Made by a program: the position numbers | Source of the DNA: a plasmid | Sequence record: NZ_CP037809.1 | DNA length: 12,520 bases | Direction: 5' to 3' (one strand) | Shown: piece by piece, positions 6,001-12,000 of the stretch | Position numbering within the stretch: the first letter of the stretch is position 1 | How the letters are laid out: the number at the start of each line of letters is the position of its first letter

Positions 6001-9000
6001 ATTTTCTAAAACTCTTTCTTGTCTGCTATTATCTTGTTTTCTTGTACTTACCCTTTCATATCCTATTATCATAACACTACCCCCGTTTATCTTGTTATAA
6101 TAATTATACAATATATTTTCCGTTCGGTCAAACTATATTTTCTATTTTCACAATACCGAACGTATTTTATTGTTGATTTCCAATGATTCTATGTAAAAAT
6201 AACATAAATATCATACGTACGGTTAAACGTTGGTTTTTCCGAACACGAACATATCACCTTTTTTATATCAACTATTCCTTAAATATTTTATATAAAATCG
6301 CCAAAATCTTTTTATATTTTTTAGGCAACCAAGTTTTTAAAACAAAAATGGTATATCAGTAAGAATTATGTTTTCACACAATATAATTCTTAATGATATA
6401 CCATTTAAGAACCTCATAAGAGGTAGATAGAGATAATTACATAATCATCACATACGTTTTATCAAATCTGTTTTGTAATAGGGTTTATACTTAAATAATA
6501 ACAAAAATACCGTATTTTTTCTACATTTATACTTTTTTTGTTGATAGTAAAATATGGAAATTAGTCATATTTTCAGTTATTAACTCATAAGTTTATACAA
6601 CTTTTATTTAAATATAATAAAAACATCAATAATAATTAAATTATTGAAGCATATATTTATATTAATATCTATCATTTAAATTTGATTGAAACAGTTTTAT
6701 ATCTCTAATGGATTTTTTAGAAGCTTTTACAATATCAGTTATAAATCTTATTTCATACTCATTACAATCCCTCAAAACTTCTTCTAACTCATTTTCAAAG
6801 ACAGCTTTAGAACTTAAGATTGTATCACATAATAATTCATCAACCGACACCCCAAGAGTATTTGCAATAGCAACGAGCGTTGGCAAACTTACACTTGAAT
6901 TTCCCGTTTCAATATTGCTGACATGTTGTGGACTAACATTGATTTTTTCTGATAAAACTTCTTGTGTTAGCTTTTTCTTGATTCTTGCAATTTTTATCCT
7001 TTGACCTATAAATTTGAAATCAAGCTCCATATGCGTATTCCCTTCCTACAAGTATTCACACATATTGTAACCTTTCCCAAAGTATATTATAATAAATTAA
7101 TAGAATGTTTCATTATGATAGTTATAGTGTATAGAAAGGAATTATATGGATATACCAAAGATACCTCAAACAGAACTCAAAGTCATGAAATTTATTTGGA
7201 GCAAAAACGACATTGTAACATCTAAAGAAGTTGCAAAAGCTATGGAACTTGAATATAGTTGGAAAATGACAACAACCCTAACAATCTTATCAAGGCTTGT
7301 TATTAAACACTTTTTAGCATCTGAACGAATAGGCAGAATGACACATTATACGATACTCATAGCAAAAAAAGATTATAAAATATCTGAAACAAAAAGATTT
7401 CTAAATGACATACATTCAAATTCATTGGAAAGCCTTTTAAACTCTTTGAAAGATTGCAATATTACACATAAAAAATAGTACATGAGTATAAATTATATTA
7501 TTATACCTATGTACTATTTAAGTTTTTCTATAATGTTCCTATATCTATCTAATTTTGATTGATTTAGATACTTCTGTAGTAGTTTTCAAAACGTTTCTTA
7601 ACTCTTGTAAGTGTATTTTCTTTTTTTAATATTTTTGAGATGTACTTATTAATGTTTTTGACTCATTTTCAGCAGTAATTATTGCAACAGCTCTATAAGT
7701 ATGTCCTTTTGTCACAGAATATGAGTTTAAAACAGAACAAGTTTTTCCTCCAGTTTTCTTTGTAGATGTTTTTAAATTTACCCAACTTCCGCCTTTTAAT
7801 TCTTGTAACTTAGTTACAATAGATGTTCTAGTTACTCCAGATTTTCCAACAACAGAAGCATTTACATTTGCTTTTCCATTAGAAAATGATAAATTACATC
7901 TACCATTTAATATGTAAACTGAAAAAGGATTTATTTCTTCTTTACCATCTTCCATAAAAATAATATCAGATGAATTAAACTGTTCAGCAAAACTAACAAC
8001 ATTTACTGACATTATTATTATCAACGCACATACAAATATTGAGATTATATTTTTTACTCTCATTAAGTACCTCCTTATAAAATCTTATATATTCAATATA
8101 ACAACTAACTAGCACTATTTTAGACAAAAATTTACTTAATATTTTTTGCAATTTTAATAAATTCTTTTTTATCTTTCTTAGTTATTTTTTTTGTAGGTAG
8201 CTCTTTAGATAACATATAAATATTATTTTTATCATGCCACAATAATTGTTGAGTATTTCCTTTTTCAACATACTGTGCATACTGATTATTAAATTTTATA
8301 TTCTCAACAAAAGCATCCTCTGTATCCAAGACTATAACATCCCTAGAATATAACATCATTTGATAAATTATATAGTTATCTAATTTATCTTTATATAATA
8401 TTGATAGATAATTTTCTTCCTCAATTCTCTCAACTTCTTTATATCCAGTAGAAATGTATTTAGGTTCTATATATTTAAATGATACATTTGATTTATGAGG
8501 GTTTATAAAATTATAGTCTGTAAATTCTTTATATACCTTCTTCATTATTCTAATTAAATTTTCTGGAAAAGCTTCTGTTTTTATAGTAGTTATAGTGACT
8601 ATACTTGATAAAATTATTATAAAAACAATAGCAATTTTTTTTAAGTTTTTATAGGTGTTCTTTTTTACTTTTTTCTCATTTTCTTTTATAATTTTATCCA
8701 TTTTACTTTCAAATTCTATAGAAAATTCATAGTCAATATCTTCATCACAAGGTAATTCATACAGTATTTTTTCTTCTATTTTTGGAAGCTGTTCGTATAA
8801 TAATTTTTCTATGTCTAATTTATCTTTATTCATTTGATAATGCCTCCATTTCGCTTAAAATTTTTTTTAATTTTTCTAATGCTCTTTTATTTCTCTTATA
8901 CAAATTAACCTCTTTTATATTCAGTAGTTTAGAAATTTCTCTGATAGAAAAACCATGACTATATTTTAAGAGAATCACCTGTAAATCTGTCTCTGACAGT

Positions 9001-12000
9001 TTTTTTAAAGCTTCTCCTAAATAACTACACTCACCTAACTTTTCAATCGATAAATCTAAAGAGCTGAATTTATAGTTATCATCATTAATATTACTTATTT
9101 CCTCTTTTTTTCTTCTATTATATATATTTATTGAAATCCTTTTTACTATAATAACAACAAAACCTTTAGTTTTTGGACTATTCACATCATTTACTTTATC
9201 AAGATTATCAATTATTTTTAAAAATGAACTATGAACAGCATCCTCCGCTAAAACATCATCTTTTAAAATTTGATTAGCTACATAAAACATTAATTTCTTA
9301 TATTTAATATATATTTCTTCAAATTTAATTCTTTCTTCTTTTGAATCTATAATAGCTAAATATATTAACATAAATTATTCTCCTTAAAAATATTATCCTT
9401 AAAAATTATATACAATTTATAAAAATTATATATAAATGTCTAAAAATAAAAACTTCATTTGTTATATATATAAATAAAAACATAAAAGGATGGTGTTTTA
9501 TATGAAATCAAAAAGAATAAACAAAATGTTAGCAACTACAATGACAATGGCAATGCTAGCAATACCAGCAGTAACAGCAACATCATATGCAATGGAATCA
9601 ACAGGGTTAGGAACAGAATATACATATAATAATGAATCTAAACAGCAAGAAGAGTGGGTTAAATCATTCGATACTGAAACAGGAAAAGAAATATTATTAA
9701 ATAAAACTACTAACGAAAAAGTTTCTGAAGTATATGAAAATGTAAATGGAAAATTGGTTAAATTAAGTATTAATGAAGCACTAGAAAAATTTAATTTAAA
9801 TGAGGAAATTATCACAAAATCTCCTAAGTCTATTTTTGGAGTATCAAGTGTTAAAAAAATTACTGGTTCTGCACGCAAAATATCACAAGACGTATCAGGT
9901 GGAAAACAAGGTGCTACTATATCTATAGGAAATTCAACAACTGTAACTGAAAGTTTTACTGTTGGTGGAACTACAGAAGCAATAAAGGCAGCAGTAAGAG
10001 CAAATGCAGGATTTACATGGAGCAAATCTTTAACAAGAAGTGTCACAACTACACACAAAGTACCTGCAGGTAAAATAGGATATGTAGCATTTAAACCATA
10101 TTATAAAGAAGTAAGAGGTACAGTAAATGGGATACTTGCAGGAACTTCTATAACTCAAAAAATAGTAGCAAAAAGTCCTCTTAAAGCAGGAAAAGTTTGT
10201 GATGGGTTAGAATATCTTGCATACAAATAATAAATAATAGAAAGAGTTGATTAAAATGGAAAATAAAAATATGTACTTAAGGGTTAGTTTAATATTAGCA
10301 GTATTAGGCTTTATAATATTATTTTTTAATAATGACTTAGCATTATCACTAAAAGCAACATACTTAGCTGATAAAGGCTTCGAAGACATAGTTGAAAATC
10401 AAATATTAAAAAACTATTCCTATATGTTTTTAATAATAGGTGGTGTACTATTTTCCATAGGAATCTATAACTTAACCAAACTGAAACAAATTAATAAAAA
10501 ATAAATAAAATAAGAGGACTTATAAATTATAAGTCCTTTTATTTTACACTTATAAGCTACTTTCAACCTTTCATGATTTAACCTTTATTTATACAACACC
10601 CAAAACTCGACCTCAAAAAGAGAACAGGACTTCGTCCCCCTTAATACAAAGCAACATTTTTTAGTACTATTCGTACTTAAGATTAGCTATTAGATTAATC
10701 CTTCCAAAAGAACCTCTTTTTCCGTTTCATCAATCGCATTTAAAAGTTTATTTATTCTAGCTTCAACTAAATGCTCTATGCTTAAATCATTGTCTATTAG
10801 TCCTAATTCTTTTTTTATGTCCTCTATGTCTATATGTTTCTTAATAGTGTAAACTCTAATTACTTTTTTATCTGTCACAGGGTTTGGAAGTATATTTTTA
10901 TAGTATTTATAGGGCAACCCTGTGACACCCCTGTGTTGTTTGACTTCAATAACAAAAATTGATTGTAATATTAGACTTATTTTCTTAATAGTTAGCTTTT
11001 TCTTAGTTGCTAAAAACGTCTGTAAATCAACGGCTAGAGCTTCTAAGTGTTCTTTTGTATAACTTGTACCAACTCCAAAATTGAAGTTTATATAATTGTA
11101 AGTATAAGTACCAATATTATCATCATTTAGCAAAGAATTTGCGTATTTTTTATTAATTTTTCGATAAATTGTTGTATTTATCTGTTCAAAAAATAGATTT
11201 CTTTTCTCGTCTGACATTGTCGCAAGTTTCCAAGATAGGTCAATACTATAACTATTATCTAATACAAAATCACTAAATAAGTCTATCGTTTTTCTACAAT
11301 TATTATTAATTATTAGGCTATATAAATCATGTTCCATATAATATTTTAAACAGATATTATTATCTATCCTCATGTCATGATGATATTTTAATAAGTTACT
11401 GCTGGTCATTGACTTCTTAATTTCACTATAGCCAACTAGATACTTTTTATGTCCTTCTAGTTGTTCTATAGCTGATTTCTTAAATTCCTTAATAGCTTCC
11501 TCATGCTCTTTTATTTCTTCCTCTATTTTTTTAGTTTCTTTTTCAGTTTCTACTATCTCAATTTTATTAAAATATTCCTCTAATAGCACTTTGAAGCTGT
11601 TTATTGTTCTTGTTTGGTAATAGTTATTGTAAGCATTACTTTTTATGTATAACTTGTCCGTTTTATAGCACATATCTTTTTTATCATAGTATATATTACT
11701 ATCAATGTTTTTTATGTTTATAGGGCTTATATCAATTCCTATAGCTCTATATGGTAAGTCTCTCTTAGAAGCTTTATTGTATATATTTGTTAGGCTCTCA
11801 ACGTCTTTTATGTTCTCATTTATGCACCATTCAACCGAATATACATTGCTATCCTCATTTGTCGTTTTGTAACTATTAAAAATATGTACATTTATACTTT
11901 TTGCCCCTCTAGCTCTTGCAACATACTGTTTTATTTTTCCTACATCCTTTTCTCCAATTACAATAATATCTGTTACATTAGGATTATTTATGTTTACACC

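Follow-up and report, generated by a model that had tools for sequence, protein, structure and literature searches.

A stretch of 12,520 nt from the plasmid record NZ_CP037809.1 (hereafter the window) carries five genes arranged as two divergent units, which we interpret as a toxin/immunity cassette controlled by a dedicated extracytoplasmic function (ECF) sigma factor. Encoded on the minus strand are an ECF-type (group 4) sigma factor of 181 aa (8826..9371), a candidate anti-sigma factor of 233 aa (8132..8833), and a secreted protein of 145 aa (7626..8063), and on the plus strand a Sec-secreted DUF6060 protein of 242 aa (9502..10230) and a mini-protein of 82 aa with two transmembrane (TM) segments (10256..10504). 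The plus-strand bicistron is closed by a bidirectional intrinsic terminator (10506..10546), found in a scan and folding with -20.1 kcal/mol in RNAfold, in agreement with the strong terminator proposed in a first-pass annotation that had been made from the sequence alone. All five open reading frames (ORFs) of that annotation were found where it had placed them, and its reading of the locus as a regulated toxin/immunity system gains support from a promoter motif, from the conservation of the 2-TM partner, and from related sigma modules that lie next to bacteriocin genes. RefSeq labels two of the five products, as a sigma-70 family factor and as a DUF4367 protein, and lists the other three as hypothetical.

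The 181-aa protein scores 71.8 bits with TIGR02937 (sigma70-ECF; cutoff 42.9, E 4.9e-20) and consists of regions 2 and 4 only, Pfam Sigma70_r2 and Sigma70_r4_2 both being above cutoff, as is characteristic of ECF sigma factors. It has 146 homologs across the Clostridia. The sigma and anti-sigma genes overlap by 8 nt (ATGAATAA), as had been noticed before. The anti-sigma candidate is predicted to consist of a cytoplasmic N-terminus, a single TM segment at residues ~66-86, and an extracytoplasmic DUF4367 domain (PF14285, E 3.9e-15, residues 122-232), so that the earlier assignment of an ECF-type sigma factor with a one-TM anti-sigma factor holds for both proteins. It is matched over its full length by phrog_12603, and no sequence relative with a solved structure was found for it. 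The overlap, the TM segment, the DUF4367 domain, and the fact that the pairing is kept in every homologous locus all suggest that this protein is the cognate anti-sigma factor.

The DUF6060 protein starts with a signal peptide (residues ~1-30), which seems to be cleaved between ...SYA and MES. An alternative start lies at 9490; the position of the ribosome-binding site (RBS) favors ATG 9502, which is also the RefSeq call. The secreted ORF of the first-pass annotation is real, its product comprising 242 aa with a mature part of ~212 aa. Pfam DUF6060 (PF19535) is matched with 33.1 bits (gathering threshold 26.5). A word-indexed search yields 18 close relatives from Clostridioides and gut Clostridia, and an exhaustive profile search 257 cluster representatives of similar length; 75 of 89 sampled relatives from the latter search match Pfam DUF6060 as well. 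A C-terminal CDGLEYL motif is invariant among 16 close homologs. The Pfam family also takes in fungal secreted proteins, and in the sole paper found to mention DUF6060 it is listed as a candidate effector of fungi that lacks annotation.

With 16 homologs as input, AlphaFold2 gives a model that is confident over the mature protein (pLDDT, the predicted local distance difference test, is 83-92 over most of residues 50-242) and in which two very long strands (192-212 and 215-226) and a helix (159-168) are seen. The top Foldseek matches of this model are to Clostridium perfringens enterotoxin (CPE; 11 chains, prob 0.97-1.0, E ~2e-3 to 1.5e-2), further matches being parasporin-2, epsilon-toxin, Dln1, HA70, monalysin, natterin, Cry23, Mpp75, Cry51, and aerolysin. 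The structure comparison that had been suggested for this protein thus leads to CPE, epsilon-toxin, aerolysin, and similar proteins, and two independent comparison methods return pore-former families almost exclusively, albeit with modest scores. The alternating Ser/Thr-hydrophobic beta pattern recognized in the first-pass annotation is real and conserved across 89 family members. It occupies residues 138-158 and 169-187 (138-187 in total, nt 9913-10062 on the plus strand), on either side of the modeled helix, with Ser/Thr at >=60-90% at one set of positions and hydrophobic residues at >=65-100% at the other. Judging from the model, this alternation represents the amphipathic pre-stem hairpin signature of the aerolysin family, flanking a helix as in a CPE-type pre-stem, and the DUF6060 protein is predicted to be an aerolysin-like beta-pore-forming toxin.

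The fold predicted for this protein, an elongated beta-sheet, resembles that of the aerolysin/ETX-MTX2/CPE families in its very long strands and in the central amphipathic hairpin, part of which is modeled as a helix. In contrast to them, it lacks a match to their sequence models, it is small (~212 aa mature), it is encoded together with an immunity-like 2-TM protein in bacteriocin-type contexts, and it carries a WW-like N-terminal mini-domain instead of the known receptor-binding domains. This mini-domain, at residues ~50-90, is apparent from weak WW-like profile matches (W..[x]..Y.YN..TGE; PDB 2jxw, E 0.08), and Pfam WW is matched by one DUF6060 relative at 7e-5. Receptor binding, for which known aerolysin-type toxins have domains of their own, may here fall to this mini-domain instead.

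The 82-aa protein possesses two TM segments and a basic C-terminal tail and, judging from its TM profile and its homologs, is a candidate immunity protein. Of its two possible starts (10247 and 10256), ATG 10256 is favored by the position of the RBS and is the RefSeq call. In every context examined, five or six besides the window, the DUF6060 gene is followed at once by an ORF for a small two-TM, basic-tailed protein, as is usual for bacteriocin/immunity pairs, in which a toxin gene precedes a small, co-conserved membrane-protein gene. The pair occurs after an agrB-agrD-LytTR-kinase locus (L002-5), in a prophage of Metaclostridioides mangenotii between RusA and terminase (L006), on a chromosomal island (L011-14), near holin/amidase genes (L017), and in L015 and L148. 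The 2-TM proteins are 50% (L011), 47% (L017), 28% (L006), and 26% (L002) identical to that of the window; these four are collinear and share an IGG..F..G motif in the second TM segment, and the most distant ORFs, of L015 and L148, have the same topology as the window's protein. Since a homologous 2-TM ORF directly follows DUF6060 across these contexts, the two genes form a conserved mobile cassette, which usually travels without an ECF sigma factor. In L002 (2819-6935), a DUF6060 homolog of 68% identity and a 73-aa 2-TM partner are located immediately 3' of a complete agrB-agrD-LytTR regulator-kinase locus, which suggests by analogy that this cassette may be under quorum-sensing control in another gut Clostridium-like organism. 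A further copy of the 2-TM gene, ~85% identical, ends a divergent operon in L023 and L024 (2414-2674, minus strand, in both), the first genes of which encode a 220-aa secreted, C-terminally anchored protein and a 157-aa protein, both unrelated to DUF6060; this copy looks like an orphan immunity gene kept after replacement of the cargo.

The third gene of the minus strand encodes a 145-aa protein with a signal peptide ending in ...SFA before EQ, an immunoglobulin (Ig)/fibronectin type III (FN3)-like beta-sandwich of the generic type, and two conserved Cys residues. Its 14 homologs are, every one, exactly 145 aa long, and each homolog examined directly follows a sigma/DUF4367 pair, so that this protein is a fixed part of the sigma module, as its third component. 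The possibility that it might be a toxin or a toxin subunit was rejected, since the protein accompanies every type of cargo and its fold is generic. Of the two roles envisaged for it earlier, that of a partner subunit is therefore unlikely, and a signaling or feedback role is possible.

The resulting trio of sigma factor, DUF4367 protein, and Ig-like protein adjoins differing cargos in different loci. On the Clostridioides difficile chromosome, it lies after genes for a Lactococcin_972 protein (Lcn972; 3.3e-8), its bacteriocin-associated membrane protein of the TIGR01654 type (1.2e-74), and an ATP-binding cassette (ABC) ATPase. In L019/L020 and L021/L022, the neighboring gene encodes a 185-aa secreted protein whose hydrophobic segment is of the glycine-zipper type, and in L021 a 62-aa 2-TM ORF comes after this gene; on the soil Clostridioides plasmids L023/L024 the trio is divergent from the genes for the 220-aa, 157-aa, and ~85%-identical 2-TM proteins. 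More distant trios are found on pHSJD-312 (sigma 53% identical), upstream of a geobacillin-26 family protein (NF035925, Geo26A_fam 9.5e-47) and a 92-aa ORF, on CP103805 (sigma 54%), upstream of a 278-aa secreted protein and an 82-aa membrane protein, and in Vescimonas fastidiosa (sigma 41%), upstream of a 147-aa secreted protein and an ABC-2 transporter. Geo26-family proteins have been shown experimentally to be class III bacteriocins (PMC13176240). The lactococcin-972 and geobacillin-26 genes thus occupy a position equivalent to that of the DUF6060 cargo beside homologous trios, and the Lcn972 gene even has a promoter motif identical to that of DUF6060, although the bacteriocin proteins themselves are unrelated to DUF6060 and the Lcn972 gene is accompanied by a DUF1430/ABC immunity-transport pair instead of a 2-TM mini-protein.

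On a metagenome contig, a distant DUF6060 gene lies 3' of the genes for a single-TM protein and for a 142-aa protein, the latter of which can be aligned end to end with the Ig-like family (hhalign E 7e-5). To a moderate degree, this contig supports a recurrence of the trio-DUF6060 pairing beyond Clostridioides. In a census of trios, a metagenome search gave three loci, all of known types, and a search of viral contigs gave none. All three trio proteins have full-length PHROG families. In the C. difficile phage phiSemix9P1 (L154, KX905163), positions 3954-6089 encode a 'sigM' sigma factor, a DUF4367-type protein ~33% identical to the window's anti-sigma candidate, and, after a gap of 452 nt, a 147-aa protein with a signal peptide; phage HGP05 gives a similar match. 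It follows from the related trio of phiSemix9P1 that trios travel on phages, too.

An alignment of the upstream regions of three cargo genes (the window's DUF6060 gene and those of L019 and L021) yields an ECF-type motif, TGTCTAAA-N14-TTGTTATA, which in the window lies at 9437..9466 on the plus strand, 35 nt 5' of ATG 9502 and following the second copy of a 12-bp repeat. Between the DUF6060 and 185-aa cargo upstream regions, the common footprint comprises ATGTCTAAAAA and TYATTTGTTATATA, set apart by ~8 variable nt, then the RBS AAAGGATGGTG and a signal peptide that is homologous as well. An exact copy of the motif occurs on the minus strand (8097..8126), 34 nt 5' of the start of the 145-aa gene and within the 68-nt gap after the anti-sigma stop. 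This site lies outside the derivation set, as do those of the Lcn972 and 145-aa genes in L007-10 and L150, and those of the 220-aa cargo gene (exact) and the 145-aa gene (one mismatch) in L023/L024. Exact copies are present 5' of the Lcn972, 185-aa, and 220-aa cargo genes; the spacing is the same at all these sites, and each is situated ~35-40 nt 5' of a start codon with a good RBS. Within the window, two matches with at most two mismatches were found where 0.11 would be expected. A genome-wide scan for the exact 16-base motif is uninformative, as single matches in unrelated taxa are among the matches listed, and the significance of the motif therefore rests on its local context. We predict that 9437-9466 is the sigma-dependent promoter of the cargo bicistron. 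Since the 68-nt gap has its own promoter-like element, the three-gene minus-strand operon proposed before reduces to a sigma/anti-sigma unit and a separately promoted third gene.

The element upstream of the Ig-like gene is homologous in L007, L023, L025, L152, and L153. In the last three of these, it takes the diverged forms TGTCACAA-N14-TCGTTATC (L025), TGTCCAGA-N14-TCGTTATA (L152), and TGTCCAAA-N15-CCGTTCT (L153), which belong to trios with sigma factors 53%, 54%, and 41% identical to that of the window and which keep the architecture with an ECF-like CGT. Promoters of the ECF type combine AAC or GTC in the -35 element with CGT in the -10 element, at a spacing of ~16-17 nt. Compared with TGTCTA-N17-TGTT in the window, the distant trios have TGTCAC-N17-CGTT, TGTCCA-N17-CGTT, and TGTCCA-N18-CGTT, so that the motif appears to change together with the sigma factor and towards the canonical ECF form. 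A generalized form of the motif is matched 14 times in trio loci totaling 84 kb, where 0.025 matches would be expected, and nowhere in the 59 kb of DUF6060 loci without a trio.

The sigma-proximal half of the intergenic region (9372..9436) contains the RBS of the sigma gene, minus-strand TATAAT-like hexamers, and two copies of AAAAATTATATA. The latter is the 12-bp repeat of the first-pass annotation, which does occur twice (0.13 expected) but at 9401-9412 and 9421-9432 rather than at about 9405 and 9424. As a key regulatory element it was rejected, the conserved feature being the bipartite motif at 9437-9466; the second copy, which abuts the -35 element, is alone partly conserved elsewhere, as an A/T-rich tract. 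Autoregulation of the sigma gene from its own upstream promoter was rejected as well, because four aligned sigma upstream regions have no shared ECF motif. A promoter motif of the ECF type, expected to be common to both transcription units, is thus present 5' of 9502 and is shared with a trio gene, but that gene is the 145-aa gene and not the sigma gene. What precedes the sigma genes is of the TATAAT type, namely TGTTATAAT in L025 and TATAAT itself in the window. A scan for consensus sigma-70 promoters found 22 where 24.8 were expected from shuffles, and a sigma-70-like TAGACA-17-TAAATT at 9442-9414 on the minus strand belongs to this class of matches that are not enriched over shuffles. Inside the sigma ORF (9150..9179, minus strand), a motif-like AGTCCAAA-N14-TTGTTATT differs by one mismatch from the generalized form, which is matched exactly at the same codon position in L025:4193-4221 and L153:4193-4221, in sigma genes whose products are 41-53% identical. 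It could be an internal sigma-dependent promoter that feeds the anti-sigma gene and so provides negative feedback, or a coincidence due to coding constraint (...SPKTKGFVVII...).

The region that comprises promoter, RBS, and signal peptide is shared between the window (9437-9600), L019:3741-3905, and L021:6474-6636 (MKSKRINKMLATTM... versus MKSKRINRLLAITM...). In a four-sequence alignment of this platform with its upstream flank, the mean column identity is 75%; promoter and RBS are well conserved, the signal peptide more loosely, and similarity stops at about the signal-peptidase site, beyond which the mature parts are unrelated. Such a homologous platform in front of unrelated mature parts of the DUF6060 and 185-aa cargos points to cassette swapping, and it looks as though, in the manner of polymorphic toxin systems, mature toxin domains are exchanged while the segment for expression and export stays the same. 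In L021 (4311-4400), a complete copy of the motif is joined directly to a piece from within the 185-aa cargo gene (...GAVIGVIAGSIV...), and this fusion appears to be the deletion remnant of a second cargo copy 5' of the sigma gene.

Taken together, we propose that the locus is composed of two mobile modules, the regulatory trio and the two-gene cargo. The sigma and anti-sigma genes would be translationally coupled and constitutively expressed, probably from a housekeeping-type promoter. On release by the anti-sigma factor, the sigma factor would initiate transcription at TGTCTA-N17-TGTTATA promoters, that is, at the promoter of the Ig-like gene, as a feedback arm, and at that of the divergent cargo bicistron. 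Where the cargo lies 3' of the Ig-like gene, as in L021, L025, L152, and L153, both may in addition share a transcript. The DUF6060 protein would be exported by Sec, would probably oligomerize, and would insert its 138-187 hairpin as a beta-barrel into the target membrane, whereas the 2-TM protein most likely protects the producer. With at least five unrelated cargos relying on one sensor, a cargo-specific inducing signal is unlikely, and we infer that the constant Ig-like protein is a candidate ligand or modulator of the DUF4367 ectodomain; in addition or instead, envelope perturbation might serve as the signal, though this is a guess. Since trios also lie beside lactococcin-972, geobacillin-26-family, and other secreted/small-membrane cassettes, we take the cargo by analogy to be most likely a large bacteriocin serving as a weapon against bacteria, and less likely a toxin aimed at the host. 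We regard this model of an ECF-controlled toxin/immunity cassette as rather probable in its entirety. It is built on gene content, on domain and fold assignments, on a gene order conserved between loci, and on the co-occurrence of motif and trio. A further-reaching proposal, which we rate as possible rather than probable, is that DUF6060 proteins constitute an antibacterial branch of the aerolysin type with 2-TM immunity proteins and that the trio is a Clostridia-wide weapon switch, with the Ig-like protein as feedback ligand, for interchangeable cassettes (DUF6060, lactococcin-972, geobacillin-26, and glycine-zipper proteins) behind a common promoter and signal-peptide platform.

Several observations weigh against parts of the model. 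The generalized motif was built post hoc from the loci on which it was scored, so that the independent exact matches weigh more; the copies 5' of the Ig-like gene in L019 and L021 are degenerate; and no ECF motif is shared 5' of the sigma genes in the four-region alignment, which is unusual for an ECF sigma factor. Moreover, the -10 half TGTTATATA can also be read as a housekeeping extended -10 element, in which case TGTCTAAA would be the operator of another factor. If so, TTGTTATATA would be a TG-n-TATATA, the operator might be bound by an XRE- or BlaI-family repressor, both of which types are encoded beside the locus, and the ECF sigma factor would control some other target, in line with the missing motif upstream of its own gene. 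We consider such a housekeeping promoter quite improbable, as the motif accompanies the trio in chromosomal, plasmid, and Vescimonas contexts that lack those repressors, is absent from DUF6060 loci without the trio, and, in distant trios, shifts with the sigma factor to TGTCAC-N17-CGTT, a form that lacks the T of TGT and can no longer be read as TG-n-TATAAT; in addition, the sigma factor is the only DNA-binding protein common to all loci with the motif.

With regard to the cargo, no ETX_MTX2 or Aerolysin Pfam model matches the DUF6060 protein or any of the 89 relatives, and a profile of these 89 sequences searched against the PDB gave only noise (signal peptide, WW-like) and matched no chain. 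One might therefore think of a non-toxin, beta-rich surface protein, an adhesin or a spore- or envelope-associated protein, with the ECF module serving surface remodeling under envelope stress. This seems to us a poor prospect, given that two independent structure comparisons return almost only pore-former families, that the amphipathic hairpin pattern is kept across 89 diverged sequences, and that a bacteriocin-cassette context with an immunity-like partner is hard to square with a structural protein. As to the target, the aerolysin-family toxins characterized so far all act, to our knowledge, on eukaryotic membranes. In a 2022 review of pore-forming toxins, the antibacterial pore-formers listed are of the alpha type only (PMC9558359). 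The wiring could hence be as proposed and the DUF6060 protein be a eukaryote-directed, enterotoxin-like pore-former, for which the 2-TM protein would act as chaperone, anchor, or release factor. This we consider unlikely, though somewhat less so than the two preceding alternatives. A conserved, co-transcribed small membrane protein is alien to the eukaryote-directed aerolysin-family toxins that we are aware of, and in L023/L024 the 2-TM gene seems to have survived as an orphan when the cargo was replaced, a behavior typical of immunity genes. Furthermore, the trio and its promoter appear to drive bona fide bacteriocins as well, and one DUF6060 homolog directly follows an agr/LytTR quorum-sensing locus in the manner of class II bacteriocins. 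An antibacterial cargo under control of the ECF sigma factor thus remains our preferred interpretation.

Control by an ECF sigma/anti-sigma pair is a feature of actinomycete lantibiotic clusters (MibX/MibW of microbisporicin and PspX/PspW of planosporicin), in which a sigma factor and a membrane anti-sigma factor are likewise dedicated to an antimicrobial cluster and form a feed-forward loop. The present system differs from these in belonging to another phylum, in having a DUF4367 anti-sigma candidate and an extra secreted Ig-like component under presumed sigma control, in its predicted product, an unmodified protein toxin and not a ribosomally synthesized and post-translationally modified peptide, and in the association of one type of regulator with at least five unrelated cargos. 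In another respect, the locus resembles the group 5 systems (TcdR/UviA/BotR/TetR, e.g., uviA-bcn on pIP404), with a dedicated alternative sigma factor of ~180 aa whose gene adjoins that of a toxin or bacteriocin on a mobile element in a clostridial host. TcdR-related sigma factors recognize a -35 element TTTACA and a -10 element GTTATA and contain SRQ in region 4.2 (PMC4031146). The hexamer GTTATA, as in BotR/TcdR-type promoters, is present in the -10 element here (PMC4031146), but the sigma factor best fits the ECF superfamily, the -35 element is TGTCTA, and the sigma region 4.2 reads ...NIKEVNLYKRNKRAL... and does not contain the SRQ motif. With the sigma factor as query, no UviA or C. perfringens record was among the plasmid tblastn matches at E<=1e-3. 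For lack of UviA similarity on plasmids, of SRQ, and of TTTACA, a kinship with UviA/TcdR was rejected, and the sigma factor would act like the toxin sigma factors while standing outside their group, from which it is further set apart by its co-encoded TM anti-sigma candidate and secreted third component.

Dedicated alternative sigma factors for clostridial toxins and bacteriocins (the TcdR family) are already known, as are aerolysin-type toxins. The novelty lies in four points: the trio of ECF, DUF4367, and Ig-like proteins has a promoter signature of its own; it is reused with exchangeable cargos that share one promoter and signal-peptide platform; DUF6060 is assigned, based on modeling, to an aerolysin-like fold; and such a protein is paired with an immunity-like partner in bacteriocin contexts. 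Plasmids of C. difficile are common and functionally almost blank, and if the model holds true, the accessory module of a widespread plasmid family would acquire a competitive function, DUF6060 (with its 257 cluster representatives, in metagenomes of the Firmicutes type) a fold and a testable activity, and an uncharacterized ECF subgroup on plasmids, phages, and chromosomes of gut Clostridia a regulon signature. Should the target be bacterial, the aerolysin fold would extend to interbacterial warfare and might provide narrow-spectrum anti-Clostridioides proteins; as far as our literature searches showed, an antibacterial protein with that fold would be without precedent. Should the target be the host, a pathogen would possess an unrecognized plasmid-borne CPE-like toxin.

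The whole window represents a C. difficile plasmid of the pCD-WTSI family, with 98.5% identity at 100% coverage to five records of 12,488 bp, among them pCD-WTSI4 (NZ_MG019962); this near-identity and its helicase replicon module place it in the pCD630/pCD-WTSI family. The pCD-WTSI plasmids were described by Smits et al. (bioRxiv 10.1101/198473), in whose account a sigma factor is one of several domains listed for an accessory module of ~8 kb and which is silent on an anti-sigma factor, on secreted proteins, and on any function of this module (bioRxiv 10.1101/198473). The window is thus itself such a plasmid, 98.5% identical to pCD-WTSI4 over the full length, whereas the published account is restricted to domains. 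A later paper on pJMR5-W gives no further information on this locus, and literature searches found no paper describing the arrangement of sigma, DUF4367, and Ig-like genes with DUF6060, in keeping with the earlier remark that it was not recognized as a described system. PADLOC returned no meaningful matches for the locus, and the idea of an anti-phage defense system was dropped for that reason.

The gene for the helicase/primase of the pCD630-family replicon is cut by the window ends (1-800 and 10690-12486, minus strand) because the plasmid is circular; the window contains a 598-aa ORF from its C-terminal side, compared with a RefSeq gene of 2,610 nt. Compared with the reference plasmids of 12,488 bp, the window has 32 nt more, and an exact terminal repeat was not found in it. 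Beside the locus, a repressor gene of the BlaI/MecI/CopY family (7146-7478, plus strand; Penicillinase_R, 4.8e-21) is adjoined by an XRE-type helix-turn-helix gene (6662-7030, minus strand), and no BlaR/M56 sensor gene is present on the plasmid. Genes for M56 peptidases do occur near related loci, namely at L017:8123-10252, beside a BlaI gene, and at L024:7886-8543.

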